A stretch of 37,524 bases of DNA, taken from positions 1 through 37,524 of the IMG/VR virus record IMGVR_UViG_2718217884_000001. One strand, given 5' to 3'. Source of the DNA: a virus. Its lineage: Duplodnaviria; Heunggongvirae; Uroviricota; Caudoviricetes. Of the stretch, positions 2,458-36,827 are shown one piece after another (within the stretch, counting starts at the first letter, position 1; every line of letters begins with the position of its first letter). The notes beneath the pieces were generated by a model that was given only the letters and a program-made list of their open reading frames with translations, was not told the origin of the DNA and did not search any database. The translations under genes and the position numbers were made by a program.

Positions 2458-3483
2458 TTAACGGTTCCAGTTGAGATTGTGAAGCGGGTTTTTTGTCACT
2501 GCATCTTCCAGGTGGTCGGGTGCGAAGTGGGCGTAAATCATTGTCATTTTAATATCGGCGTGGCCCAGAATATCGCGCAGTACCAGTATATTTCCGCCGT
2601 TCATCATAAAATGACTGGCGAAAGTATGGCGCAGAACGTGGGTGCATTGGCCCTCTGGCAAGTCAATGCTTGCCCGCTTGACTGCACGCTCAAAGGCTTT
2701 TCTGCATGGCGTGAATAACTTCCCTCGGTTCTTTGGTAACTCGTCATACAGCGCCTGAGATATAGGAACCGTTCGGTTTTTCTTGCCCTTTGTTTTGGTG
2801 TAGGTGATTCGGTATTTAGATAACTGATGGCCCTGCAGGTTTTCGGCTTCACTCCAGCGGGCGCCGGTAGCTAAGCAGATTTTTGCAATCATGAGCAGGC
2901 TGGGGTTTTCTGAATCAGCGCAGGCATCCAGCAGGCGTTTAATTTCTTCCGGCGCCAGGAACGCCAGTTCCCCCTCTGCGATTTTAAATGTTGGAAGCCC
3001 GGCGAGTGGGTTGGGGGCTGACCAGTGGCCCAGCTTTTTCAGCGTGCCAAAAACTGATGATAGGTTGCGTTGTTCAAGGTTTACCGTGCGGGGCTTAACT
3101 GGCGACATAGGCAAGCCATCTTCATTTTTGACTTCACCTTTTAGGCGTGCTTCACGGTATTTTGTAAAGTCACCGGCAGTCAGCTCCGAGGCAATGGGAT
3201 CACCCAGGCCATTACAAATAATGTTAAGTTTTGCCATCAGGCGCTTGGGGTCAGCAAGAGTCTGTCCGTAAAGTGAATGCCACTGCTTAATTACTTCTGA
3301 CAATTGGCGCCGATCATCCTTTTCGCCTAGCCATGGCTTTTTGTTCACTTCATCCATTGTGAAGTTTTCGAATGCTATGGCCTCGCCTTTCGTCGCAAAT
3401 TGCTTGCGCACGCGCTTGCCATCGCGCCCGCTAGGGTAGCACTCACACAACCATTTCCCGTTTGGCTGTTTTCTGATGGTCAT
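2458..3483 (-). CDS. int: Phage integrase (tyrosine recombinase, P2/186 Int family)
   Basis: 341 aa; C-terminal motifs HVLRHTFAS and MIYAHF (catalytic His/Arg/Tyr region); adjacent to attL; followed by GTGCCGCC direct repeats. Confidence 0.88.
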   Translation of the reverse strand: MTIRKQPNGKWLCECYPSGRDGKRVRKQFATKGEAIAFENFTMDEVNKKPWLGEKDDRRQLSEVIKQWHSLYGQTLADPKRLMAKLNIICNGLGDPIASELTAGDFTKYREARLKGEVKNEDGLPMSPVKPRTVNLEQRNLSSVFGTLKKLGHWSAPNPLAGLPTFKIAEGELAFLAPEEIKRLLDACADSENPSLLMIAKICLATGARWSEAENLQGHQLSKYRITYTKTKGKKNRTVPISQALYDELPKNRGKLFTPCRKAFERAVKRASIDLPEGQCTHVLRHTFASHFMMNGGNILVLRDILGHADIKMTMIYAHFAPDHLEDAVTKNPLHNLNWNR

Positions 3484-3484
3484 A

Positions 3485-4117
3485 TCAAAGGCTCTTAATA
3501 ACTTTTAAGACGTGGCCTACAACCTCGATATCATCCAGGCTGCACTCAAAAGATGATTCATCTTGATGAACTACCAATCTGTTTCCGGGGATACGGGTTA
3601 ACTTCACAATACTTTTTATTCCATCAATATCGACCAACCACACCCCATTTACTGGTGGTGTTTGGCTGCGATCCACTAGGTATGAATCACCACCGGTATT
3701 TACTAAGAGTAAGTTACTGGAATTGGAAGGAAGCAAGCTGCTGTCAATGATTGCTTTACCTGTATCCACCAAAGAGCCGCTAGAAAGTGTCACTTTGTCA
3801 ATTTCGGGAGAAACAAGGTCAGAAAGGTGTTTAACTTTGCCGGAGTTCACGAAATTGATATCTTTTTGCATGTCAATGTTTGAACCCGGCTCGCCTTGCC
3901 CTGTGGTAAGCCAGAGTAAAGAAACGCCTGTCTCAAGAGCGCACTGAATTACCCATTCTGCAGGGAAACTATCTCTTAAGTATCTGTTTGCCATGGTGCT
4001 TTTAGATGCGCCAAGATGGTCGCACAATTGCTGTCTTGATTTGAAATCGTAGGCTGCCATTAGCCTATGGATGGCCTCTCTACCCCCGGTGTTCTCGCCT
4101 GTCTTTACTTGTATCAT
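3485..4117 (-). CDS. cI: CI-like immunity repressor (N-terminal HTH, C-terminal S24-like domain)
   Basis: 210 aa, divergent from apl/cII operon, position between int and the lytic operon as in 186. Confidence 0.7.
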   Translation of the reverse strand: MIQVKTGENTGGREAIHRLMAAYDFKSRQQLCDHLGASKSTMANRYLRDSFPAEWVIQCALETGVSLLWLTTGQGEPGSNIDMQKDINFVNSGKVKHLSDLVSPEIDKVTLSSGSLVDTGKAIIDSSLLPSNSSNLLLVNTGGDSYLVDRSQTPPVNGVWLVDIDGIKSIVKLTRIPGNRLVVHQDESSFECSLDDIEVVGHVLKVIKSL

Positions 4118-4236
4118 TTTTTAATCCTATTGACGTATCAAATATTGGATCGTAGTATCTTTTCGTATCAACTCTTGAATCGTATAAAACAAGATAAAAC
4201 GACGTAAACCAAACCTTAACCGAGAGATACTGCACT
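4118..4236. promoter_or_regulatory. Lysis-lysogeny switch region with divergent promoters and repeated operator-like motifs
   Basis: Between divergent cI (-) and apl-like (+); four spaced copies of a (A)TCGTAT-containing motif (TTGACGTATCA 4129.., TTGGATCGTAGTAT 4145.., TTCGTATCA 4162.., TTGAATCGTATA 4175..); candidate -35/-10 TTGACG-18-TAGTAT. Confidence 0.5.
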
Positions 4237-4485
4237 ATGAGCACTGATATTTCAATTCGTGTACCAAAAGTGATAGCGACGCCAGCCGAGTTTGCTAAGT
4301 GGGAAGGGTATTCCCGTGGTTCTGTTTATCAGATGATTCATAACGGTAAATTGGCTAACTACATTGAAAAGAAAGAAAAAAACAAAGGCCGCGTATTCAT
4401 CCTTTACCTCAAGTACAAAAAAGACCAAGCAAGCAAAAACATGGACAAGTCTGCATTCAATTACAACGTTGTAGTTGGTTGTTAA
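4237..4485 (+). CDS. Apl/Cox-like excisionase and transcriptional regulator
   Basis: 82-aa basic protein, first gene of the rightward operon opposite cI, position as 186 apl / P2 cox. Confidence 0.5.
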   Translation: MSTDISIRVPKVIATPAEFAKWEGYSRGSVYQMIHNGKLANYIEKKEKNKGRVFILYLKYKKDQASKNMDKSAFNYNVVVGC

Positions 4486-4517
4486 GTTCAATTATGTGAA
4501 CTTTTGAGGTATGAAAC

Positions 4518-5027
4518 ATGTTTGATTATAAGATTTCCAAACATCCGCATTTTGATGAAGCCTGCCGGGCTTTCTCGCTGCGTCACAACATGGCGAAGCT
4601 GGCAGAACGCGCAGGAATGAATGTCCAGACGCTGCGCAACAAGCTGAACCCGGAGCAACCGCATCAACTTACCCCGCCGGAGATCTGGCTGCTGACTGAT
4701 ATCACAGAAGACTCAACGCTGGTTGACGGTTTTCTGGCTCAAATCCATTGCCTGCCGTGCGTGCCATTGAATGAAGTGGCAAAAGAGAAGCTGCCGCATT
4801 ACGTCATGAGAGCTACTGCTGAAATCGGACGTGTTGCTGCCGGTGCCGTATCGGGTGATGTGAAAACCACCGCAGGCCGCCGCGATGTTATCAGCAGCAT
4901 TAACTCTGTTACTCGTCTGATGGCACTGGCTGCCGTTTCGATGCAGGCGCGTTTACAGGCTAACCCGGCGATGGCAAGCGCGGTGGATACCGTGACGGGC
5001 CTCGGCGCTTCGTTTGGTCTGATCTGA
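4518..5027 (+). CDS. cII: 186 CII-like lysogeny establishment activator
   Basis: 169 aa; MFDYKISKHPHFDEACRAFSLRHNMAKLAERAGMNVQTLRNKLNPEQPH... resembles phage 186 CII; GAGGT RBS. Confidence 0.75.
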   Translation: MFDYKISKHPHFDEACRAFSLRHNMAKLAERAGMNVQTLRNKLNPEQPHQLTPPEIWLLTDITEDSTLVDGFLAQIHCLPCVPLNEVAKEKLPHYVMRATAEIGRVAAGAVSGDVKTTAGRRDVISSINSVTRLMALAAVSMQARLQANPAMASAVDTVTGLGASFGLI

Positions 5028-5034
5028 GGTGGTT

Positions 5035-5235
5035 ATGCTGACTAAAGAACCCTCTTTTGCGTCACTTCTCATAAAGCAAAGCCCGGCAATGCACTACGGT
5101 CACGGCTGGATCATGGGGAAGGATGGCAAACGCTGGCACCCGTGCCGCTCTCAGGATGAACTGCTGGCTGACCTGTCCACAACCAAACAGGGGAAATCAT
5201 GGCTATTGAAGGCGCTGCAGCGACTGTCCCATTAA
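5035..5235 (+). CDS. Small early protein (Fil-like by position)
   Basis: ATG at 5035 preceded by GAGGTGG; ORF track lists 5029 (GTG); follows cII as fil does in 186. Confidence 0.4.
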   Translation: MLTKEPSFASLLIKQSPAMHYGHGWIMGKDGKRWHPCRSQDELLADLSTTKQGKSWLLKALQRLSH

Positions 5236-5540
5236 GCCCCGGTAAAAGGCTGGACGCATTGAATCATATTGCGGAATTGAGAGCTAAAGTGTTTGGCCTG
5301 AATATTGAGCCGGAGCTTGAAAGGTTTATTAAAGATATGCGCGATCCACGCGACGTAAATAATAAACAGAATGAGCGGGCACTGGCAGCCATTTTTTATA
5401 TGGCAAAAATTCCGGCAGAACGTCACGGCGTCAATATTAGTGATCTGACTACTGACGAAAAGCGGGAACTGGTGAAAGCAATGAATCATTTTCGTGCAGT
5501 GGTGAGCTTATTTCCCAAACGGCTAACCATGCCGAATTAA
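5199..5540 (+). CDS. Hypothetical early-operon protein
   Basis: 113-aa ORF in the early operon, overlaps previous stop; no family recognised. Confidence 0.5.
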   Translation: MAIEGAAATVPLSPGKRLDALNHIAELRAKVFGLNIEPELERFIKDMRDPRDVNNKQNERALAAIFYMAKIPAERHGVNISDLTTDEKRELVKAMNHFRAVVSLFPKRLTMPN

Positions 5541-5607
5541 TCCACAACAGAAATTAATGGCGTAAACCCGCCGGGCTTCTTATTGCCCAAATTCAGGAGA
5601 AACAACT

Positions 5608-5841
5608 ATGCGAAATATTGAAACCCGTACCACTAAAACCGGACCAGATGATGCTGGTCTCAACCTGTTGCTGACTGAGGCACGCAAAGAAGAACGCCGG
5701 GGACGCGCAGATGTGATGGCTGCGCGTCTGGATTCTTTAGCTGCTCGTATCGTGTCACGTCAGCTTAACCACACGGAAGCGGCTGAGCTGCTGCGTCAGG
5801 AAGCTGTGAAGATTCAGAACGAAGCGCAGGAGATCCACTGA
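5608..5841 (+). CDS. Hypothetical early-operon protein
   Basis: 77-aa ORF with AGGAG RBS; stop overlaps next start. Confidence 0.5.
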   Translation: MRNIETRTTKTGPDDAGLNLLLTEARKEERRGRADVMAARLDSLAARIVSRQLNHTEAAELLRQEAVKIQNEAQEIH

Positions 5842-6068
5842 TGGCTGATTCAATGGACCTTGTACAGCAGCGCGTTGAAGAAGAACGCCCGCGCCATATC
5901 CACACCGCCCGCAATAAAACGCCGGGCGTTTCCCGTGTTCTCTGCATTGATTGCGATGCGCCGATCCCGCCAGCTCGCCGCCGCGCCATTCCGGGCGTGC
6001 AGTGCTGCGTCACTTGTCAGGAAATCGCAGAGCTGAAAGGCAAACACTACAACGGGGGTGCTGTATGA
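5841..6068 (+). CDS. TraR/DksA-type C4 zinc-finger protein
   Basis: 75 aa with CIDC...N17...CVTC four-Cys motif; common upstream of gene A in P2-like phages. Confidence 0.65.
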   Translation: MADSMDLVQQRVEEERPRHIHTARNKTPGVSRVLCIDCDAPIPPARRRAIPGVQCCVTCQEIAELKGKHYNGGAV

Positions 6069-9324: not shown

Positions 9325-9420
9325 TGCCGCAGCTTTAACAATTCTTGCTCTTATTGATCCGCATCAGAGCGATCTAATTGACAGATAAAAAACGGTTTAC
9401 ATTCGCAAATTCCTACTATA

Positions 9421-9436
9421 CTGTAATTATAAACAG
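9421..9436 (+). promoter_or_regulatory. LexA (SOS) box overlapping promoter -10
   Basis: CTGTAATTATAAACAG is a perfect CTGT-N8-ACAG; -35 TTTACA (9396..9401) and -10 TATACT (9417..9422); a second degenerate half-box at 9437..9452. Confidence 0.7.
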
Positions 9437-9485
9437 TGGATATATATACAGTTGTTGTATATCCGAGGTGGTGATAGGAGGGAAA

Positions 9486-9674
9486 ATGCAGGATTATCTT
9501 TTGGAGTCGTTGAAGCTCCAGCGCATTGATTTTTTTATCAAGCTTGTAGCGGCTAGTGAGTGTAGCGACGAAGAAAAGCGGCTGGCTATCCAGTGGGTGT
9601 CCGAACTGACCGACGAGCTGATGGCGAAAATCCGCAGCCATGAATACTGCCGGTCAATGGATGTAACCAGTTAA
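9486..9674 (+). CDS. Small SOS-controlled protein (candidate antirepressor, Tum-position)
   Basis: 62 aa from ATG 9486 with GGAGGG RBS; directly downstream of LexA box; the longer 9378 start would precede the promoter. Confidence 0.5.
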   Translation: MQDYLLESLKLQRIDFFIKLVAASECSDEEKRLAIQWVSELTDELMAKIRSHEYCRSMDVTS

Positions 9675-9685
9675 GGGGAATCTGT

Positions 9686-9919
9686 ATGCGCATTGAAATA
9701 ATGATCGATAAAGAGCAGAAGATTAGCCAGGCTACACTGGACGCCCTTGAATCCGAGCTTTACCGTAATTTGCGCCCTCTGTATCCCAAAACAGCAATTC
9801 GTATCCGTAAGGGCAGCGCCAACGGCGTTGAGCTGAGCGGGTTAAAACTGGATGAAGATAAAAAGCGAGTGATGGAAATAATGCAGCAGGTCTGGGAGGA
9901 CGACAGCTGGTTACATTAG
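9686..9919 (+). CDS. DinI-family protein
   Basis: 77 aa; MRIEIMIDKEQKISQATLDALESELYRNLRPLYP...EIMQQVWEDDSWL aligns with DinI by eye. Confidence 0.75.
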   Translation: MRIEIMIDKEQKISQATLDALESELYRNLRPLYPKTAIRIRKGSANGVELSGLKLDEDKKRVMEIMQQVWEDDSWLH

Positions 9920-10052
9920 CGAACGTTGCGGACGATAAAACTGGTTTTTACCGTCCGCAAGGTTGAACAACGAGCCACGCGAGGCGTTAGCGCTGTTGTG
10001 CATGTCTATGCCGCATGAAATCGCATGATCGTTTGAGGATCGTTTTTGCTCA

Positions 10053-10078
10053 GGCCCGCCAGAACTGGCGGGCTTTTG
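10053..10078 (+). terminator. Rho-independent terminator after SOS operon
   Basis: GCCCGCCAG-AACT-GGCGGGC hairpin followed by TTTTGCTT. Confidence 0.55.
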
Positions 10079-10122
10079 CTTATGTCATGCAGGTGCATGA
10101 AAACCACTACACAAAGCGGGCA

Positions 10123-10141
10123 GGCGTGGCGGGGATACGAG
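10123..10141. other. Candidate cos (cohesive end) site
   Basis: GGCGTGGCGGGGATACGAG; first 13 nt identical to my recollection of the 186 cohesive end GGCGTGGCGGGGAAAGCAT; position near Q 3' end. Confidence 0.35.
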
Positions 10142-10240
10142 CGCGCGCTGGTTGGTTTGGGACAGCTTTCAAGAGCTATGTCTCATTTTTGCTTGGACGG
10201 ATAGATTACTCTACTCAAAACATGTGAAATGGAGATAAAC

Positions 10241-10423
10241 ATGCCGTATCAAGTTAAAGCTTATTGTCCTTGTTGTGGGGTCGCTGCAAGTGGTGATCTG
10301 AACAAAATTGAAGAGGTATTTGGTTTTAGAATGATGGAAGGGGAACGTTTGATTCCACAATCATATTGTCGCAGATGTCGTCGATTAAGATGTTCTCCAA
10401 ATGATAAAAAGTGCGGAGCATAA
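10241..10423 (+). CDS. Cys-rich zinc-ribbon protein, unknown function
   Basis: 60 aa from ATG 10241 (GGAG 6 nt upstream); CPCCG...CRRCRRLRC; AT-rich codons; 3-nt gap to next gene. Confidence 0.55.
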   Translation: MPYQVKAYCPCCGVAASGDLNKIEEVFGFRMMEGERLIPQSYCRRCRRLRCSPNDKKCGA

Positions 10424-10426
10424 AAG

Positions 10427-10696
10427 ATGGCGGTCTATTGTGTAACGTATGACTTGAAAGCTCCAGGCAAGAACTATGATGATGTTTTTACCTATCTCAA
10501 AAAGTTTGACTACTGCAAACATTTAGAATCCTTTTGGTTAATCGATACCACGCTTTCTGCAGCGCAATTGCGTGATGGACTTAAAGCAAATGTTGATAGT
10601 AACGATGTGATCTTTGTTGCTCGTTTACAAAAATCTTGGGCCTCATTAAATTATTCTTGTTCTACATGGTTAAAGGCTCCTGGTCGAAATTGGTAA
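10427..10696 (+). CDS. 89-aa protein of unknown function, co-operonic with zinc-ribbon ORF
   Basis: GGAG RBS; N-terminal beta-strand-like VYCVTYDL; AT-rich; followed by terminator hairpin. Confidence 0.55.
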   Translation: MAVYCVTYDLKAPGKNYDDVFTYLKKFDYCKHLESFWLIDTTLSAAQLRDGLKANVDSNDVIFVARLQKSWASLNYSCSTWLKAPGRNW

Positions 10697-10703
10697 ATAA
10701 ATT

Positions 10704-10730
10704 AAGGCCGCATGATTAGCGGCCTGTTTG
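10704..10730. terminator. Bidirectional terminator hairpin between small cassette and Q
   Basis: GGCCGC-ATGATTA-GCGGCC with T-rich tracts on both strands. Confidence 0.5.
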
Positions 10731-10758
10731 AATATTGTTGTTGATGAGTAGGTGATTA

Positions 10759-18692: not shown

Positions 18693-19095
18693 AGCGGTGG
18701 CGTATGTCCGCAACAACCCGGATAAGCTGCACCTTTTCGTTGATAACGGCTCACTGGTGGCAACCGGTGCCAGCTCTATGTCATGGGAATACCGCTACAC
18801 CCTGAACGTTGTGATCGAGGATTTCAGCGGCGACCAGAATCTGCTGATGGCTCCCGTGTTGCTGTGGCTCAGCGAAAATCAGGCGGACGCCATCAACAAC
18901 CCGGAGCTGCGCGAAAAACTGTTCACCTTTGAAGTGGATATTCTGCGCAATGATGTGTGCGATATCAGCCTGAATCTGCAACTGACGGAGCGTGTACTGG
19001 TCAGCACTGACGGCGGTATCTCAACGGTTGAGGCGGAGCCAGAACCCGACGAGCCAGAAGAAATGTGGACGGTGAAACGTGGAAAATCTGCATAA
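18655..19095 (+). CDS. R: Tail completion protein R (P2 gpR)
   Basis: GTG start at 18655 with AGGAGCG RBS; ORF track start 18634 is TTG. Confidence 0.75.
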   Translation: MNKPQSLRSALNKAVAYVRNNPDKLHLFVDNGSLVATGASSMSWEYRYTLNVVIEDFSGDQNLLMAPVLLWLSENQADAINNPELREKLFTFEVDILRNDVCDISLNLQLTERVLVSTDGGISTVEAEPEPDEPEEMWTVKRGKSA

Positions 19096-19525
19096 AGTGG
19101 ATGAGTGGCTGACAGCGCTGCTGGCGAATCTGGAGCCGGCTGCGCGTCAGCACATGATGTGTGAACTGGCGCAGCAGCTGCGTCGAAATCAGCAGAACAA
19201 CATCCGCCTGCAGCGCAACCCCGACGGAACCGGCTACGAGCCGCGCCGGGTAACAGCCCGCAGCAAAAAGGGGCGCATCAAACGCCAGATGTTTGCAAAA
19301 CTTCGCACCACCAAATACCTGAAAGCTGCAGCGAGCGCGAACTCTGCGAGCGTGCAGTTTGTGGGACAAGTGCAGCGTATCGCTCGGGTACACCATTACG
19401 GCTTACGTGATCGTGTTAGCCGCAATGGACCATTAGTAATTTATAGAGAACGAAGGTTACTTGGATTCAATGAGAATAATGATTGCATTAAAAATATATT
19501 AATTATGTCTTTATTTAATACATAA
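19079..19525 (+). CDS. S: Tail completion protein S (P2 gpS)
   Basis: 148 aa, GTG start overlapping R; last codons are AT-rich. Confidence 0.75.
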   Translation: MENLHKVDEWLTALLANLEPAARQHMMCELAQQLRRNQQNNIRLQRNPDGTGYEPRRVTARSKKGRIKRQMFAKLRTTKYLKAAASANSASVQFVGQVQRIARVHHYGLRDRVSRNGPLVIYRERRLLGFNENNDCIKNILIMSLFNT

Positions 19526-19529
19526 TGTA

Positions 19530-19575
19530 TCGTGGTAAAAAATAGTAAAGCCAAATGGCTGGCTAATTGCCAGCC
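19530..19575 (-). terminator. Terminator hairpin between convergent S and ATPase cassette
   Basis: GGCTGGC-TAATT-GCCAGCC (19557..19575) followed on minus strand by T-rich tract. Confidence 0.5.
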
Positions 19576-19581
19576 ATAACT

Positions 19582-20439
19582 CTATGAAATTAGTGATATT
19601 TTTTGATTGTAGTAATCATAATCCGCATGTTCTTCAGTAAAGAATAATTCAAAAGCCGTTAGCATATTTGAATAAAAACTATCTTTTGATATTGCAGTTT
19701 TTCTCTCATTTTTAGCTAAGTAATTGGTTATGAATCTTAATGATGCTGAGAATAGAAAGTGCCCCTTTATCCAATGCGTTATGCAAGTGTTGGCAGGAAA
19801 TTGAATGTTGTTTTTTTCTGCTAACCCTACATTTCTGAAATCATCAGGAAGGGTTTGAATATAAGCATTTATCTTATCTTGACATGTTTTGTAAGAGTTT
19901 TTTGATTGCATAAATCTATCGCATGAATCACCTACTACGGAATAGCCACGCTGATTTAAATGATTGTAAATATCTAAGGCAATTAGGTCTTCAATATTGT
20001 TATAAAACTCTAATAGCCAGGAGTTTATATTTATTCCTTGGATTTCTTTGGCACTGTATCTTCCCATGTGTTTTAACACACGGGATAGGACTTTCTCATC
20101 GACTATAGTATTTTCAATTGAGTAACCTTTTGTATAGATGATGTTTGTATGATTTACTAAGTTGGATGAAAAATGATTCAGATCTGCATCGCGGGCAACA
20201 ATTGCGTTTATTTGTCCTGATGTGATTCGCTCAATATAAGGTTCTAATGCTTCACACCCTCCAACTTCTTGCACTTCAACACTTAGTCGACCATTTTTTT
20301 TGAAAACTATTTCCCAAAATCCAATATCATCCTCACCTTCAACATATACCATGATATCAGCATCATAAAACATGCTGATAACATTTTCCGCCTCGTCAGA
20401 CCAATTAAAGTTATCTGTTCGAATCTCATTATTGGACAT
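19582..20439 (-). CDS. TOPRIM/DUF4435-like protein (PARIS AriB-like candidate effector)
   Basis: ATG 20439 overlaps the last codons of upstream ATPase gene; conserved acidic motifs VYVEGEDD and IVARDAD spaced as in TOPRIM folds; AT-rich. Confidence 0.5.
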   Translation of the reverse strand: MSNNEIRTDNFNWSDEAENVISMFYDADIMVYVEGEDDIGFWEIVFKKNGRLSVEVQEVGGCEALEPYIERITSGQINAIVARDADLNHFSSNLVNHTNIIYTKGYSIENTIVDEKVLSRVLKHMGRYSAKEIQGININSWLLEFYNNIEDLIALDIYNHLNQRGYSVVGDSCDRFMQSKNSYKTCQDKINAYIQTLPDDFRNVGLAEKNNIQFPANTCITHWIKGHFLFSASLRFITNYLAKNERKTAISKDSFYSNMLTAFELFFTEEHADYDYYNQKISLIS

Positions 20440-21682
20440 TGACAAGTTTCTCCATGTTAAAAATTGCACTCCTGTATTTTGAAGCTACTTCTGGAGAATG
20501 TGTGGCAGCTATTACTTGTGCATTGGGATTGAGTTTTTTGATTGCTGGGATAATGTTTCTTTGCCATTGAATATGTAGGGAGAGTTCAGGCTCATCTGTT
20601 AGGAAAATATATTGTTTTTCTCTTTGTAATAGGGTTTCTATGAATAAAATAAGTAATTGCTTCTCACCTGAAGATAAATTTTCCTGAATTATTGGTCCGT
20701 AAGTATTCTTTATGGAAAGTATTCCGCCTTGAAAGTCAAATTCCTTATCAGTAATAAATTCTTTTAAAATACTTAAAAATTGTTCAATGGGAGCGAAAAC
20801 TAAAGATGTTTTTTCTTTAGATTTTAAAGACATTCTAATTATTTTTTGTGTCTTTCTTAGCGCTTCAATTGAGCGGATGTCAAAACCATCTTTTTTATTT
20901 TGTTTTAATTCTGCAATGGTGTGATCAATAGTGTCAACATGGAAATTTATTTTCCGACGGACATTCATATCAATAGCGTTTAGTTGTGTGTACGCACTTA
21001 AAAGGTTTTGTTTTTCTTCCTCCTTGTTAAATTGAATGTTGTACGCCTTATCATCAATATCATCTTTACTATATAGAATAGATGCTAAAACTTCTTTTTG
21101 AAGTTCTAATGCAATATCTCTCGCTCGTTGAGATAATTCAAGTTGATATTTTGTTAATTCCTGCATTAATTCTGATAGTTTATAATCGACAGGGTTGATA
21201 AAGCGAGAGCCGTATTTGTCTCTAACCTCAAAGTCGTCACTATTCCTTAGTCTATAGACGGATAAAGATGAGAGTGAAACCAGTTTTGCTAATTCTGCTC
21301 TTAACTCCTCAGTCTCTTCTTGTGCTCTGCGTCTATAACTGAGGGAGATTCTTCTGTCATCGGCGTTGAATAGTCGGATGGTATGTTTTTTTGATGAAAG
21401 TTGATACTCTATTTTAGAGAACGGTGATGTATCACTCTCGATTTTCTTAATTTTTATTGTCTTAGTTTTCTTTTTGTCCTTTAGTTTTATTTCGGCACTA
21501 TTGAAATCATTGTTGTTAATGCCATCAAGGTCAATTGATAAAATTGAATGCAAAATATTCATAAAAGTTGTTTTGCCGGTTCCATTCCTTCCAATGATGA
21601 TGTTTACATCATCATTAAAAGAGCAAAGAGCATTTAATCTTTGCCAAAAACCATTGATAGCGATGCTTTGTATTTTATACAT
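20429..21682 (-). CDS. ABC-type ATPase (AAA_15/OLD-N-like; PARIS AriA-like candidate sensor)
   Basis: Walker A GRNGTGKTT, ABC signature LSSGEKQ, Walker B IFLTDEPELSLH, H-loop ATHSP; AAGGAG RBS 7 nt before ATG 21682; AT-rich. Confidence 0.6.
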   Translation of the reverse strand: MYKIQSIAINGFWQRLNALCSFNDDVNIIIGRNGTGKTTFMNILHSILSIDLDGINNNDFNSAEIKLKDKKKTKTIKIKKIESDTSPFSKIEYQLSSKKHTIRLFNADDRRISLSYRRRAQEETEELRAELAKLVSLSSLSVYRLRNSDDFEVRDKYGSRFINPVDYKLSELMQELTKYQLELSQRARDIALELQKEVLASILYSKDDIDDKAYNIQFNKEEEKQNLLSAYTQLNAIDMNVRRKINFHVDTIDHTIAELKQNKKDGFDIRSIEALRKTQKIIRMSLKSKEKTSLVFAPIEQFLSILKEFITDKEFDFQGGILSIKNTYGPIIQENLSSGEKQLLILFIETLLQREKQYIFLTDEPELSLHIQWQRNIIPAIKKLNPNAQVIAATHSPEVASKYRSAIFNMEKLVNVQ

Positions 21683-21725
21683 CAACTTACTCCTTGTTTT
21701 GGTTGAGTCGAACTTATCAACTGTT

Positions 21726-21743
21726 TGTACCAGCTATAACACA
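21726..21743 (+). promoter_or_regulatory. Candidate Ogr-dependent late promoter element upstream of V
   Basis: TGTACCAGCTATAACACA fits TGT-N12-ACA; spacing to V start is shorter than ideal. Confidence 0.35.
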
Positions 21744-21790
21744 ATTATGCTGGTTCGTACGAATCATTTCAAATGTTCAATATAGGCAGT

Positions 21791-22369
21791 ATGAACACAC
21801 AACTTACCGAAATCATGCGCCTTATCACCAATCTGATCCGTACCGGCACTGTGACCGAAGTGGACCGGAAAAAGTGGCTGTGTCGGGTGAAAGTGGGCGA
21901 GCTTGAAACTAACTGGATTAACTGGCTGACGCTGCGCGCCGGTGGTGCCCGTACATGGTGGTGTCCGTCGCCGGATGAGCAGGTGGTGTTGCTGAGCATG
22001 GGCGGCAATCTGGAAACCGCTTTTGTGCTGCCCGCTATCTACTCCAATCAGTTTCCGCCACCGTCGGATTCCGTGGACGGCTGCGTGACGGAGTACCCGG
22101 ACGGGGGATGGTTTGAGTATGAACCCGCCACCGGACGGTGGCATGTCAGGGGCATCAAATCCATGGTGATCGAGGCATCAGACAGTGTCACCTACAAAAC
22201 CGGTGAGTTTGTGGTGGAGGCTGACACCACGCGCATTAACAGCGAGGTGGTGATCAATGGCGGCGTCACCCAGGGCGGCGGCGCAATGAGTTCTAACGGG
22301 ATCGTAGTTGATGACCATGAGCATACTGGCGTTCTGAAAGGCGGCGACAACACGGGGGGACCGGTATGA
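21791..22369 (+). CDS. V: Baseplate spike/assembly protein V (P2 gpV)
   Basis: Starts MNT... like P2 V; alternative ATG at 21773. Confidence 0.8.
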   Translation: MNTQLTEIMRLITNLIRTGTVTEVDRKKWLCRVKVGELETNWINWLTLRAGGARTWWCPSPDEQVVLLSMGGNLETAFVLPAIYSNQFPPPSDSVDGCVTEYPDGGWFEYEPATGRWHVRGIKSMVIEASDSVTYKTGEFVVEADTTRINSEVVINGGVTQGGGAMSSNGIVVDDHEHTGVLKGGDNTGGPV

Positions 22370-23620: not shown

Positions 23621-24218
23621 CCTGTTGCCGCCGGGTTCGTCGCCGCTTGAGCGCCGACTGGCGCAGACCTGCAGCGGGATTTCCGATCTGCAGGTATCGC
23701 TGCGTGATTTGTGGAATCCGTCAATCTGCCCGGTCAGATTCCTGCCTTATCTGGCCTGGGCGTTTTCTGTTGACCGCTGGGATGAGAGCTGGACAGAAAG
23801 CGTCAAGCGCCGCGTTGTGCAGGACGCTTTTTATATCCATCAGCACAAGGGGACAACCAGCGCCGTGCGGCGCGTGGTGGAGCCGTTCGGCTTTCTGATC
23901 CGCATCATTGAGTGGTGGCAGACTGGCGAAATACCAGGGACGTTCCGTCTGGATATTGGCGTGCAGGACCAGGGCATAACAGAAGAAACCTATCTGGAGC
24001 TGGAGCGCCTGATCGGTGACGCCAAACCGTGCAGCCGTCACCTGGTTGGTATGTCCATCAACCTGCAGACAGGTGGCCCGTATTTTGTGGGCGCAGCCAC
24101 CTACACCGGCGAAGAAATCACGATCTACCCGTATATCAACGAAACCATTATTTCCGGCGGCACCGCTTATGAGGGCGGGGCGGTCCATGTTATTGACACG
24201 ATGAGAGTGAACCCATGA
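23613..24218 (+). CDS. I: Baseplate/tail protein I (P2 gpI)
   Basis: ATG 23613 overlapping J stop. Confidence 0.8.
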   Translation: MNSLLPPGSSPLERRLAQTCSGISDLQVSLRDLWNPSICPVRFLPYLAWAFSVDRWDESWTESVKRRVVQDAFYIHQHKGTTSAVRRVVEPFGFLIRIIEWWQTGEIPGTFRLDIGVQDQGITEETYLELERLIGDAKPCSRHLVGMSINLQTGGPYFVGAATYTGEEITIYPYINETIISGGTAYEGGAVHVIDTMRVNP

Positions 24219-25203
24219 GCGCAAAATTTTACACCCTGCTGACGGATATCGGCGCGGCGAAACTGGTAAGCGCCGCCGCGCTCGGTGTCCCACTAAAAAT
24301 TACCCATATGGCGGTGGGCAGCGGTGGTGGTATGCTGCCCACACCCAACGCGCAACAGACCGCGTTAGTGGCTGAGGAACGCCGCGCAGCGCTGAATATG
24401 CTGTATATCGACCCACAGAACAGCAGCCAGATTATTGCTGAGCAGGTGATCCCGGAAAATGAGGGCGGGTGGTGGATTCGTGAAGTCGGCCTGTTTGATG
24501 AAACAGGTGCGCTAATTGCTGTGGGAAACTGCCCGGAGAGCTACAAGCCGAAGCTGGCGGAGGGCAGCGGACGCACGCAGACCGTGCGAATGGTACTGAT
24601 TACCAGCAGCACGGATAACATCACCCTGAAAATTGACCCCGCTGTGGTTCTGGCAACCCGCAAATATGTGGATGATAAGGTGCTGGAACTTAAGGTGTAT
24701 GTGGATGACCTGATGGCAAAGCATCTTGCTGCGGTTGATCCTCATTCGCAATATGCACCAAAAGACAGTCCGACTCTGACAGGCATGCCTAAAACGCCAA
24801 CGCCACCGGCAGGAAACAACAGCACCCTGATTGCCAGTACAGCCTTTGTACAGGCCGCTATTCTTGCCCTGATAGGTGGCGCACCGGCAATGCTGGATAC
24901 GCTGAAAGAAATTGCGGCAGCTATCAATAATGACCCGAATTTCAGTACCACCATTAACAATGCGCTGGCACTGAAAGCACCACTGGCAAGCCCAGCCCTG
25001 ACCGGAACGCCAACGGCTCCGACTGCGGCGCAGACTGTGAACAATACGCAGATTGCCACTACAGCATTTGTGAAGGCAGCTATTGCCGGGCTGGTTGGTT
25101 CATCGCCGGAGGCGCTGGACACACTGAATGAACTGGCAGCTGCGCTGGGGAATGATCCTAACTTTGCGACAACAGTGATGAACGCGCTGGCGGGGAAACA
25201 GCC

Positions 25204-26542
25204 CATAAGCGCTAACTTAAGGGTTGAACCATCTGAAGAATGCGACGCCTCGGTGCCTCGTTAAGACGATGCCTCGCGTTCTTCAATTGCGTTTTGTAGG
25301 CTGTCAGGGATACTGTCCCACGAATGGCCACCTGTAAGCTCCAGATGACCATTTTTGTTATTCTCCACAACGAGTTAGTTCTTCTTTTCGGATCCGGCAC
25401 TTCTGGGGGGGAAATCCAGCGATGGCTGGATTATGTCGTCAATTAAAAATGCGGCGAGTAGATTAGCAAATATCCACGCTTTCGCGAGTTCAGGTTCCTT
25501 TGCACGCAAAGCATCCAGGTGCAGCAAACTTTTGAGCCGCTTAAAAGCCAGTTCAATTTGCCATCGCAGACGGTAACAATCAGCCACTTGCTCTGCTGAA
25601 TATTCATCTTCCGGTAATGATGTTAGCAATAGCACATGGCCCGCTGCTTCCAGCGTTTCCGCCTGAACTACTCGTCCTTTTCGACGATTCTCGCTGAGCA
25701 GTCGGGTTTTACTGATTAATGCTTTTTCGGGAGGAAGTGATACGGCAATGAGACGTGCCGGAAAGGGAGCTCCGGCTTTTTTATTACCTGAATTGCCTAT
25801 CATTACAGTGGTTTCACCGTTCTTACCGCAATCCAGCCCGCGCAGAAAACCCATCATGTCAAAGCGCATTCCTTCTGCAGTTAACCAGCGCAATCCTCGC
25901 CAGTGAACCCGGACGATATAATCAGCTTCTCCAAAAGCAAGTGAGCGGATACATTCGGGACGCGAACCGAATCCCCGGTCAGCAATGCGTATCTCGTCTG
26001 CCGTTTGCGCAAATCGGTCCAGCCGTTCAGCGTCTCTGCTGTCGGTTAGCTCAAAATCAGTGAACTGACAGGTATGAGGATCATATCCCATATGTAGTCG
26101 CCATTCAGCGCTGCCGCCCCCGGGCGCACTGATTGCTGTTCCATCGACAAGACGCAATCTCTTTCCGCTTGTACAACCCGTAACTGCGGCGCGTACAGCA
26201 AGTGTTTGTGCGGCAAGTATGCCAAACCAGTCGGCGGCATTCCGCAGCCGCTTCAGGAGAGCCACGTCAGATAATGTTGCAACGTCATGGAGCTGAGCCC
26301 ATGCAGTGACTTCACGTAATGACATCCCCCCGGGGCCGTAAGCCAGCCCCAGACGTAGCAGAGTTGCAGCATCACGAATTTCGCGGCGGCGGGTTAGAGC
26401 CCCGGCATTACGTGCCGAAGTATCCAGTTCTTCGGGCTTACCAATATGGGCCAGAATTGCTGACCAGTTATCGTGAGAGTAATTCATCGGCACGTTAAAT
26501 CATATCAGGCGTAATACCACAACCCTTAAGTTAGCGCTTATG
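25204..26542 (-). mobile_element. IS186 (IS4 family) insertion
   Basis: Inverted repeats CATAAGCGCTAACTTAAGGGTTG / CAACCCTTAAGTTAGCGCTTATG; direct repeat GGAAACAGCC at 25194..25203 and 26543..26552. Confidence 0.88.
25375..26493 (-). CDS. IS186 transposase (DDE, YREK motif)
   Basis: 372 aa; ...CYRLRWQIELAFKRLKSLL contains the IS4-family Y-R-E-K signature. Confidence 0.88.
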   Translation of the reverse strand: MPMNYSHDNWSAILAHIGKPEELDTSARNAGALTRRREIRDAATLLRLGLAYGPGGMSLREVTAWAQLHDVATLSDVALLKRLRNAADWFGILAAQTLAVRAAVTGCTSGKRLRLVDGTAISAPGGGSAEWRLHMGYDPHTCQFTDFELTDSRDAERLDRFAQTADEIRIADRGFGSRPECIRSLAFGEADYIVRVHWRGLRWLTAEGMRFDMMGFLRGLDCGKNGETTVMIGNSGNKKAGAPFPARLIAVSLPPEKALISKTRLLSENRRKGRVVQAETLEAAGHVLLLTSLPEDEYSAEQVADCYRLRWQIELAFKRLKSLLHLDALRAKEPELAKAWIFANLLAAFLIDDIIQPSLDFPPRSAGSEKKN

Positions 26543-26590
26543 GGAAACAGCCCCTCGATGCCACTTTGACTAACCTCAGCGGGAAAAGTG

Positions 26591-26616
26591 TTTCAGCCCT
26601 TCTACAATACCTTGGT
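26591..26616. promoter_or_regulatory. Hin/Gin-type recombination site (left crossover site of invertible tail-fibre segment)
   Basis: TTCTACAATACCTTGGTTTGGGAGAA; 12-bp half-sites around a central TT, resembles hix/gix; located in H at the constant/variable junction. Confidence 0.65.
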
Positions 26617-27083
26617 TTGGGAGAAGGCTCAGCGTTACCCGTTGGTGTACCTGTTCCGTGGTCTTCAGCCACTCCTCCAACAGGCTGGCTGAAATGCAAT
26701 GGTGCGCCTTTTTCTGCCGAAGAGTATCCGGAACTGGCAAAAGTTTATCCGACAAATGAATTGCCAGATTTACGTGGTGAGTTTATTCGTGGCTGGGATG
26801 ACGGGCGCGGTATTGACGCGGGGCGCGAAATTCTGTCTGCTCAGGGTGACGCCATTCGAAATATCGTTGGGCATATCTCATGCGTGCGTCGTGGGCCTGA
26901 AGGTTCAGACCGTGCCGATGGCGCGTTTAGATACGATAGCAACTGGTCTACAAAAATTAGATCGACTGATTTAGCAGACGACTGGGGGAGCGTAGTCTCA
27001 TTTGATGCCAGTCGCGTAGTTCCAACTGCACCAGAAAACCGTCCACGCAGTATCGCATTTAACTTCATCGTGAGGGCCGCATA

Positions 27084-27686
27084 ATGACACAGGCAAAATT
27101 AAACAGTGAATTTATTGCCACAGTAGCGGGTGATATGACCGTCTATAACTATGACAACACGACACGGGAATACATTTCATCATCAACAGAATATCTTGCC
27201 GTTGGCGTCGGTATCCCGGCATGTTCTTGTTTAGATGCACCAGTTACACATAAAGCTGGTTATGCAATCTGCCGTTCTGCAGATTTTAACTCATGGGAAT
27301 ATGTGCCAGACCATCGCGGTGAAATCATCTATAGCACCGAAACAGGAGAATCGAAAGAAATCACAGCTCTGGGTGATTACCCTGAAAATACAACCACTAT
27401 CGCCCCGTTAACGCCATATGATAAATGGGATGGTGAGAAATGGGTGACGGATACCGAGGCACAGCACGGCGCAGCAGTAGATGCAGCAGAAGCACAGCGC
27501 CAGTCGCTGATTGATACTGCAATGGCCTCCATCAGTCTGATTCAGCTGAAATTGCAGGCCGGACGTAAACTGACGCAGGCAGAAACAACCCGCCTTAACG
27601 CTGTGCTGGATTACATTGACGCGGTGACGGCAACAGATACCAGCACCGCGCCGGATGTCATCTGGCCTGAACTGCCGGAGGCGTAG
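27084..27686 (+). CDS. G: Tail fibre assembly chaperone (P2 gpG-like)
   Basis: 200 aa; C-terminal ...DYIDAVTATDTSTAPDVIWPELP typical of Tfa proteins. Confidence 0.8.
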   Translation: MTQAKLNSEFIATVAGDMTVYNYDNTTREYISSSTEYLAVGVGIPACSCLDAPVTHKAGYAICRSADFNSWEYVPDHRGEIIYSTETGESKEITALGDYPENTTTIAPLTPYDKWDGEKWVTDTEAQHGAAVDAAEAQRQSLIDTAMASISLIQLKLQAGRKLTQAETTRLNAVLDYIDAVTATDTSTAPDVIWPELPEA

Positions 27687-36462: not shown

Positions 36463-36509
36463 TTTGGTGGAGCTGGCGGGAGTTGAACCCGCGTCCGAAA
36501 TTCCTACAT
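36463..36509 (-). repeat. attR core: 47-bp direct repeat (within intact ssrA 3' end)
   Basis: Identical to 2294..2340. Confidence 0.9.
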
Positions 36510-36827
36510 CCTCGGTACTACATGCTTAGTCAGTCTTTACATTCGCTTGCCAGCTGCGGACGGACACGCCACTAACAAACTAGCCTGATTAAGTTTTAAC
36601 GCTTCAACCCCAGGCAGGGCTTCCACGCGATCTCTTTTGGGTTTGACCTCTCTTGATCCCCGTCCTAAGAGCGGAGGCTAGGGAGAGAGGGCTCTAAGCA
36701 GGTTATTAAGCTGCTAAAGCGTAGTTTTCGTCGTTTGCGACTATTTTTTGCGGCTTTTTACGAGGCCAACCGCCCCTCGGCATGCACCTTGGGTTTCGCA
36801 AATCCCGTCGAATCCAGAATCAGCCCC
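36465..36827 (-). ncRNA. ssrA: tmRNA (SsrA), intact
   Basis: Reverse complement begins GGGGCTGATTCTGGATTCGACGGG and ends GGTTCAACTCCCGCCAGCTCCACCA; tag region GCAAACGACGAAAACTACGCTTTAGCAGCTTAA (ANDENYALAA) present. Confidence 0.95.

Follow-up and report, generated by a model that had tools for sequence, protein, structure and literature searches.

A divergent PARIS-type (AriA/AriB) cassette, by sequence and predicted fold, between tail genes S and V of a P2/186-like prophage of Escherichia coli

The stretch of DNA analyzed here (the window, 37,524 bases) is identical, with 0 mismatches, to positions 620043-657566 of the E. coli strain S1 chromosome (NZ_CP010226.1) and contains a 186/P2-like prophage with an integrase, CI, CII, Fil, a replication endonuclease, a complete set of late genes of P2 type, and ogr. 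The gap between the late genes S and V of this prophage is filled by two open reading frames (ORFs) on the minus strand, for an ABC-type ATPase and a DUF4435 protein, which an earlier note made from the bare sequence had proposed to be the AriA and AriB components of a PARIS anti-phage system. From the architecture, family membership, folds and catalytic residues described below, we read the cassette as a functional PARIS system for abortive infection, borne as a moron on a P2/186-like prophage, at a probability of roughly 0.85. The features of the cassette, which we refer to as ariA-like and ariB-like, are as follows.

19537..19584, minus strand: intrinsic terminator of ariAB, predicted as a hairpin followed by a U-run (terminator scan; RNA fold)
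19582..20439, minus strand: ariB-like gene, predicted DUF4435/TOPRIM nuclease, 285 amino acids from the ATG (ORF; RefSeq 'DUF4435 domain-containing protein')
20429..20439, minus strand: overlap of the ariA 3' end with the ariB start, 11 nt, ATGTCCAATAA (read from the sequence)
20429..21682, minus strand: ariA-like gene, ABC/SMC-type ATPase, 417 amino acids (ORF; RefSeq 'AAA family ATPase')
21690..21695, minus strand: Shine-Dalgarno sequence AAGGAG, 7 nt before the ariA ATG (read from the sequence)
21726..21743, plus strand: TGT-N12-ACA dyad TGTACCAGCTATAACACA, candidate site for an Ogr/B-type activator at the late promoter of V (PV), 48-65 nt before the V ATG
21744..21772, minus strand: candidate sigma-70-like ariAB promoter, -35 TTGAAA, 17 nt spacer, -10 CATAAT (10 of 12 consensus positions; weak evidence)

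The two-gene operon described in the earlier note was recovered in the ORF list, and RefSeq gives the same coordinates for the identical locus of E. coli S1; starting ariA one codon earlier, at a TTG, would give a protein of 418 residues. The ariB ATG had been said to overlap the ATPase stop, and the two genes do overlap, with the ATG lying 5 nt upstream of the ariA TAA and not on the stop itself. This arrangement is consistent, as far as sequence can indicate, with translational coupling, and an ariA/ariB overlap of the same kind is present in homologous cassettes of two related loci (L003 and L009 in our labeling). The ribosome-binding site was found as described, and the terminator hairpin, which begins at the ariB TAG stop, has a predicted folding free energy of -21.2 kcal/mol (z = -5.76), with 0 of 200 shuffled sequences folding as well. 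A promoter belonging to the cassette fared less well: the candidate listed above is a consensus match, a scan of the region returned fewer such matches than did shuffled sequence, and a cassette promoter is not established thereby. This candidate adjoins the PV dyad on the opposite strand. The cassette is AT-rich, with a GC content of 0.33 in 19526-21790 against 0.54 in the remaining prophage, and ORFs of 43-103 amino acids on its plus strand were taken as chance ORFs of AT-rich DNA.

All of the ATPase and partner motifs quoted in the earlier note are present in the order and spacing given there. In the ATPase these are the Walker A motif GRNGTGKTT at residue 31, the signature LSSGEKQ at 336, the Walker B motif DEPELSLH at 363 and the H-loop ATHSP at 393, with K37, D363-E364 and H395 as key residues. 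The protein scores 76.7 bits against Pfam AAA_15 and 72.2 bits against AAA_21, its best PADLOC model is AriA (2.2e-36), and its best sequence match in the PDB is AriA from the PARIS-2 system of E. coli B185 (8ux9/8v45/8v46; 1.4e-17), to which it is 22% identical across nearly the full length by BLASTP. The next PDB matches, retron/Septu PtuA proteins at ~4e-8, are weaker by about 9 orders of magnitude. When the AlphaFold2 model of the ATPase (predicted local distance difference test score, pLDDT, 80) was compared with the PDB by Foldseek, the top 14 matches were all AriA (E ~1e-18; template modeling (TM) scores 0.57-0.63); PtuA, at rank 16 (E ~5e-13), was the first match other than AriA, and SMC and Rad50 heads came after it. 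K37 pairs with K39 of B185, and the DEPE of Walker B, which contains D363-E364, pairs with the B185 DEPE that contains E393; both B185 residues are needed for defence (Burman 2024, PMC11464382). The Walker A lysine and the Walker B glutamate are invariant in 30 homologues.

Septu (PtuAB), including the retron I-A effectors, has a related AAA_15/AAA_21 ATPase, and PtuA provides the second-best sequence and fold matches to the cassette ATPase. The partner in Septu is an HNH nuclease, whereas here it is a DUF4435/TOPRIM protein for which Pfam gave no HNH match, and the NCBIfam PtuA model scores 62.6 bits on the ATPase against a cut-off of 500; Septu was rejected on these grounds. No NCBIfam model reached its cut-off for either cassette protein, and PHROGs places both in families of 'unknown function'.

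The partner contains VYVEGEDD at residue 31 and ARDAD at 82, scores 92.2 bits against Pfam DUF4435 and has AriB as its best PADLOC model (9.4e-23). The earlier note had expected a TOPRIM-type fold, and among PDB entries the AlphaFold2 model of the partner (pLDDT 92; predicted TM score 0.88) matched AriB of B185 best: the AriB chains 8v46_D and 8ux9_A were the only significant matches found by Foldseek (E = 5e-5, probability 1.0), superimposing over the full length with TM scores of 0.54-0.56. The C-terminal TOPRIM regions of OLD-family proteins came next (TM 0.22-0.25), and GajA of Gabija ranked 17th (E = 0.43). Alignment by hhalign of the partner's family profile with the B185 AriB sequence (Rousset 2022, Table S2A) paired the acidic residues E34, D38, D84, D86 and E109 with B185 E26, D30, D88, E90 and E122, respectively, although the overall score was weak (E = 0.015). 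These B185 residues are the acidic residues of the TOPRIM site, and the E26A substitution kills defence (Burman 2024, PMC11464382). The five corresponding positions are invariant in 37 family members, and remain so when the AriB proteins of PARIS-1 and of the P2 A-Q hotspot are added.

The rule by which PARIS systems were defined with MacSyFinder (Rousset 2022) calls for an ATPase gene scoring at least 32 bits for AAA_15 or at least 27 bits for AAA_21, adjacent to a gene scoring at least 27 bits for DUF4435. The overlapping genes of the cassette score 76.7, 72.2 and 92.2 bits, respectively, in keeping with the PARIS assignment first made from motifs read by eye. Neither a lack of AAA_15/DUF4435 similarity nor a partner without a nuclease-like fold, outcomes that the earlier note named as refuting, was observed. 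The cassette has the same two-gene ATPase and DUF4435 operon as B185 PARIS-2, a system described in three papers (Rousset 2022, PMC9122126; Burman 2024, PMC11464382; Belukhina 2025, PMC12409363) and in structures 8UX9 and 8V45-8V49. The subunits of B185 are the best structural matches to both proteins, the Walker A and B motifs, signature, H-loop and five TOPRIM acidic residues are conserved, and both cassettes are carried by mobile elements of the P2/P4 system. They differ in sequence (~22% identity for AriA and ~19% for AriB), in the length of AriA (417 residues here and 464 in B185) and its divergent central helices, and in location, at the S-V junction of a P2-like prophage here and in the hotspot of a P4-like satellite in B185. 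PARIS-1 of E. coli O42 (Rousset 2022), also on a P4-like satellite, has the same architecture; the invariant E, G, DD, D-x-D and IEN motifs are common to its AriB and the window protein, which are 17% identical.

In B185, an AriA hexamer arranged as a trimer of dimers sequesters three AriB monomers (Burman 2024, PMC11464382). The system is known to be triggered by acidic anti-restriction proteins or DNA mimics, T7 Ocr among them, and also by T5 Ptr1 and Ptr2; the released AriB dimer cleaves tRNA Lys-UUU, Thr-UGU and Asn-GUU in the anticodon stem-loop. By homology, the AriA-like ATPase of the window would form a trimer of dimers that keeps AriB monomers inactive until a protein from an infecting phage binds to AriA in a way that depends on ATP. 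AriB would then be freed and dimerize, and its TOPRIM site would cleave host tRNAs in the anticodon stem-loop, so that translation stops and the infection is aborted. Complex formation, the identity of the trigger, the tRNA substrate and expression in lysogeny are what we infer for this cassette by analogy, and that its trigger and tRNA targets are those of B185 is much less certain than that it is a functional PARIS.

Several observations weigh against this reading. What is known here of the lineage comes from sequence and models, and it is ~20% identical to B185, the sole mechanistically studied system. B185 AriA is ~47 residues longer than the ATPase, whose central helical region can hardly be aligned with it, and the oligomeric state and trigger may differ from those of B185. 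The hhalign comparison of the partner with B185 AriB is marginal (E = 0.015, probability 3%), and a search of the PDB by sequence, with the single partner sequence or with a 37-sequence profile, returned nothing at E ≤ 1. Because R28 and R31 of B185 AriB, which form salt bridges to AriA (Burman 2024, PMC11464382), correspond to E36 and I39 in the partner by hhalign, any AriA-AriB interface must, judging from these aligned residues, be lineage-specific and different from that of B185. The native ariAB promoter is a consensus match not above shuffle expectation. Finally, RefSeq shows an insertion sequence, IS421, in the tail-fibre gene H of the host prophage, for which reason the cassette could be the passenger of a decaying element.

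As to the sequence searches, AriB of the experimentally active PARIS-1 likewise matched nothing in the PDB by sequence; AriB proteins diverge fast. Sequence search is therefore uninformative for such a fast-evolving family, for which fold search and hhalign are required.

The same divergence bears on whether the cassette might be a member of the wider OLD/Gabija/PARIS superfamily that works in another mode than B185, nicking or degrading DNA as P2 Old or GajA do, or responding to a trigger other than a protein. P2 Old, the class 1 and 2 OLD nucleases and GajA also combine an ABC ATPase with a TOPRIM domain in phage exclusion. The identity to B185 of only ~20%, the AriA-AriB interface residues that are not conserved, the OLD TOPRIM regions that follow AriB among the structural matches, with GajA lower, and a weak match to OLD-like_TOPRIM (PF20469, 14.5 bits) all favor such a mode. 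The last of these, however, falls below the 23.2-bit cut-off, and the full-length fold match to AriB (TM 0.55) exceeds that to the OLD regions (0.22-0.25). Further, the ATPase and the TOPRIM domain are encoded apart, the arrangement seen in PARIS, where OLD and GajA have them fused in one polypeptide; no GajB-type helicase gene is a neighbor; and PARIS-1, which diverges just as much, does work as a PARIS. We therefore consider a mode of this kind improbable. An OLD-family nuclease as such was rejected on the separate proteins and the PF20469 score, and Gabija was rejected as no helicase gene lies between S and V and GajA is a remote fold match. The caution in the earlier note that the system might be a diverged or different OLD-like one thus stands as to divergence and is disfavored as to OLD.

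A second alternative, that the cassette is mainly a toxin-antitoxin-like addiction module that stabilizes the prophage, with AriB as toxin and AriA as antitoxin, is suggested by names and by mechanism: 'antitoxin' is the name given to AriA by the depositors of the PDB structures, the Pfam description of AAA_21 reads 'putative AbiEii toxin, Type IV TA system', and B185 AriA does sequester a toxic nuclease. In B185, however, loss of either gene is non-toxic, which argues against a classical toxin-antitoxin system, and the cassette is at a site where unrelated defence genes alternate (see below). This alternative seems to us very doubtful.

The PARIS reading is supported by where the relatives of the cassette are found. 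Nine complete E. coli genomes carry this very cassette, intact and with at least 99.8% identity, and 2 have a variant at 77% identity. A second PARIS lineage, with 43% AriB identity, occupies the S-V junction in L003, L009 and the phage vB_EcoM-813R9, a member of the Peduoviridae that was the one isolated phage found by protein search of a phage collection; a DNA search of that collection matched the V gene only, in Klebsiella phages. A close homologue (AriA 84%, AriB 73% identity) was identified on Serratia marcescens contigs (L007/L008, genes at 3758-5858) between a portal gene and a gpA fragment, which is the position of the cos-proximal A-Q hotspot, in a setting that looks like a prophage remnant. 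The sites of these relatives are defence hotspots already known from P2-like elements (S-V in E. coli, the A-Q position in Serratia), and other recognized defence genes are found at S-V elsewhere, which also favors the PARIS reading.

This distribution also bears on whether the cassette is a silent or decaying passenger of a defective prophage, with no current function. The IS421 insertion in gene H, an ariAB promoter that is a consensus match, and the inactivity of PARIS-1 from its native promoter would all fit such a passenger; PARIS-1 of O42 is experimentally active, but only when induced (Rousset 2022, PMC9122126). Against this, both ORFs are intact and keep all catalytic and family-invariant residues, the ribosome-binding site, gene overlap and terminator are intact, and the 9 genomes with at least 99.8% identity come from different hosts and countries. 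That the cassette has no current function is accordingly hard to credit.

AriA is better conserved than AriB when both are compared in the same genomes: 84 versus 73% in Serratia, 71 versus 47% in Yersinia and 61 versus 40% in Aeromonas. In the family alignment, AriB residues 196-225 (window ~19765-19854) form a hypervariable stretch of 30 residues between conserved blocks. The 11 subclades of PARIS differ in AriA pore residues, which are poorly conserved, and clades have been suggested to sense different triggers (Burman 2024, PMC11464382). Because the identity to B185 is ~20%, AriA is conserved, AriB is fast-evolving and residues 196-225 are hypervariable, another set of triggers or tRNAs is possible for this lineage. 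We put forward only tentatively two readings that go further: that the lineage senses another class of phage trigger, cuts other tRNAs, or both, and that the S-V junction is an under-described defence hotspot with self-contained modules. The cassette is a divergent, uncharacterized member of a known family that standard tools (DefenseFinder, PADLOC) would flag, and it leaves the understanding of PARIS unchanged. It is of value as an intact, naturally prophage-borne lineage very distant from the sole mechanistically solved one, and comparison of the lineages would help to locate the parts of AriA that set trigger specificity and those of AriB that set tRNA specificity. The value added is modest, and lies in this distance from B185 and in the modular build of the S-V hotspot, with its S tails and PV regions.

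The S-V junction was surveyed with a 5-kb query (2.5 kb on each side of the cassette), which matched 1,086 of 5,426 complete E. coli genomes. In 51 evenly spaced rows that span both flanks, the junction was empty, with a 68-bp intergenic span, in 28 and contained extra DNA in 22. Eight occupied loci were inspected, and in each the additional genes fall precisely in the S-V gap. Over the junctions considered (L003-L006 and L011-L015), cargo is found in either orientation and includes FRG and hypothetical genes in addition to the following.

Window: this PARIS lineage
L003, L009 and phage vB_EcoM-813R9: second PARIS lineage, 43% AriB identity
L004: AAA_21 and HNH genes, Septu-like (PtuAB-like pair)
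L005: TIR protein, plus strand
L011: GmrSD
L012: KAP NTPase
L013: split AAA_15 and OLD-TOPRIM
L014: DUF6216

The L013 cargo (2640-4597) is annotated as two 'AAA family ATPase' genes, ORFs of 417 bp and 1545 bp into which an OLD-like protein (AAA_15 with OLD-like TOPRIM) is split, and may be a frameshifted OLD-family nuclease.

P2 itself has a non-essential minus-strand gene, orf30, between S and V, in agreement with the earlier note. Like the cassette, orf30 has the terminator of S on one side and the activator site of PV on the other; unlike it, orf30 encodes a single protein of 261 residues that is unrelated to AriA or AriB and for which no Pfam match was found at E ≤ 0.001 (L002, 1440-2225). 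The DUF6216 gene at the S-V junction of other prophages, including the BL21 remnant, is similar to P2 orf30 in size and strand. Published accounts place a P2 hotspot between gpA and gpQ (Rousset 2022, PMC9122126), list the old/tin, Z/fun and tail-cI hotspots (2024 preprint), and mention further defence hotspots of P2, some 'within the late genes' and some 'downstream of GpL' (2026 preprint). The S-V junction already has a name, the orf30 moron site, and recent surveys probably include it; in the literature we found no explicit account of it as a PARIS-bearing hotspot. The orf30 site acts as a slot for defence cargo in E. coli prophages, beside the cos-proximal A-Q hotspot.

The extent of the exchanged DNA was delineated from the flanking late genes, whose features are as follows.

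19079-19525, plus strand: gene S, tail completion / virion morphogenesis, left flank (RefSeq; PHROG 26 tail completion, 1.7e-42)
19079..19444, plus strand: conserved portion of gene S (RefSeq; PHROG 26)
19445..19525, plus strand: AT-rich 3' part of gene S, its final ~25 codons, within the exchanged module (GC 0.12-0.30)
21791..22369, plus strand: gene V, baseplate assembly / spike, right flank (RefSeq; PHROG baseplate assembly protein)

In S genes that are otherwise ~97% identical, nucleotide identity falls to ~40% in the last ~80 nt, and the C-terminus of S differs by type of cargo, being non-homologous yet similar-looking (window and L003-L006). The AT-rich block, which had been thought to start at 19526, thus begins inside gene S at ~19445. 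On the right, alignment of the V 5' ends shows that homology between phages resumes at the V ATG; the PV regions are non-homologous between cargo modules and keep the dyad alone. Because S-tail identity collapses, homology resumes at the V ATG and the PV regions differ per module, the exchanged unit is, by these alignments, ~19445-21790, comprising the S tail, terminator, ariB, ariA and PV promoter. The dyad itself had been proposed in the earlier note as the late-promoter site of V. Of the 10 loci compared, 8 (the window and 7 of its 9 relatives at S-V) have such a dyad beginning at -63 to -65 relative to the V ATG, amid unrelated surroundings, the exceptions being L004, where it is at -78, and P2, where it is imperfect. 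The background frequency of TGT-N12-ACA dyads is 0.21 per kb, and the P2 annotation has an activator binding site for PV at the equivalent position. If this delineation is true, S-V modules that re-encode the C-terminus of the essential tail gene S and carry their own V promoter would be a distinct route by which cassette swapping is tolerated.

The gpA-gpQ (cos-proximal) hotspot of this prophage (9325-10758) contains small genes only, annotated as a DinI-family protein and two hypotheticals, and the annotation shows no defence gene there. The prophage is integrated beside ssrA, whose transfer-messenger RNA (tmRNA) at window 36465-36827, at the prophage end, is the sole Rfam match in the window, with none inside the cassette. 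The transposase of IS421 (IS4 family; 25375-26487) splits the tail-fibre gene H (region 24215-27084), and the pieces that flank it are pseudogenes in RefSeq; given this insertion, the prophage is probably incapable of making infectious particles. Just outside the prophage integrase (2458-3483), an IS1 element and a truncated second integrase (283-2092) suggest an older, degraded integrated element beside the integrase end of the prophage.

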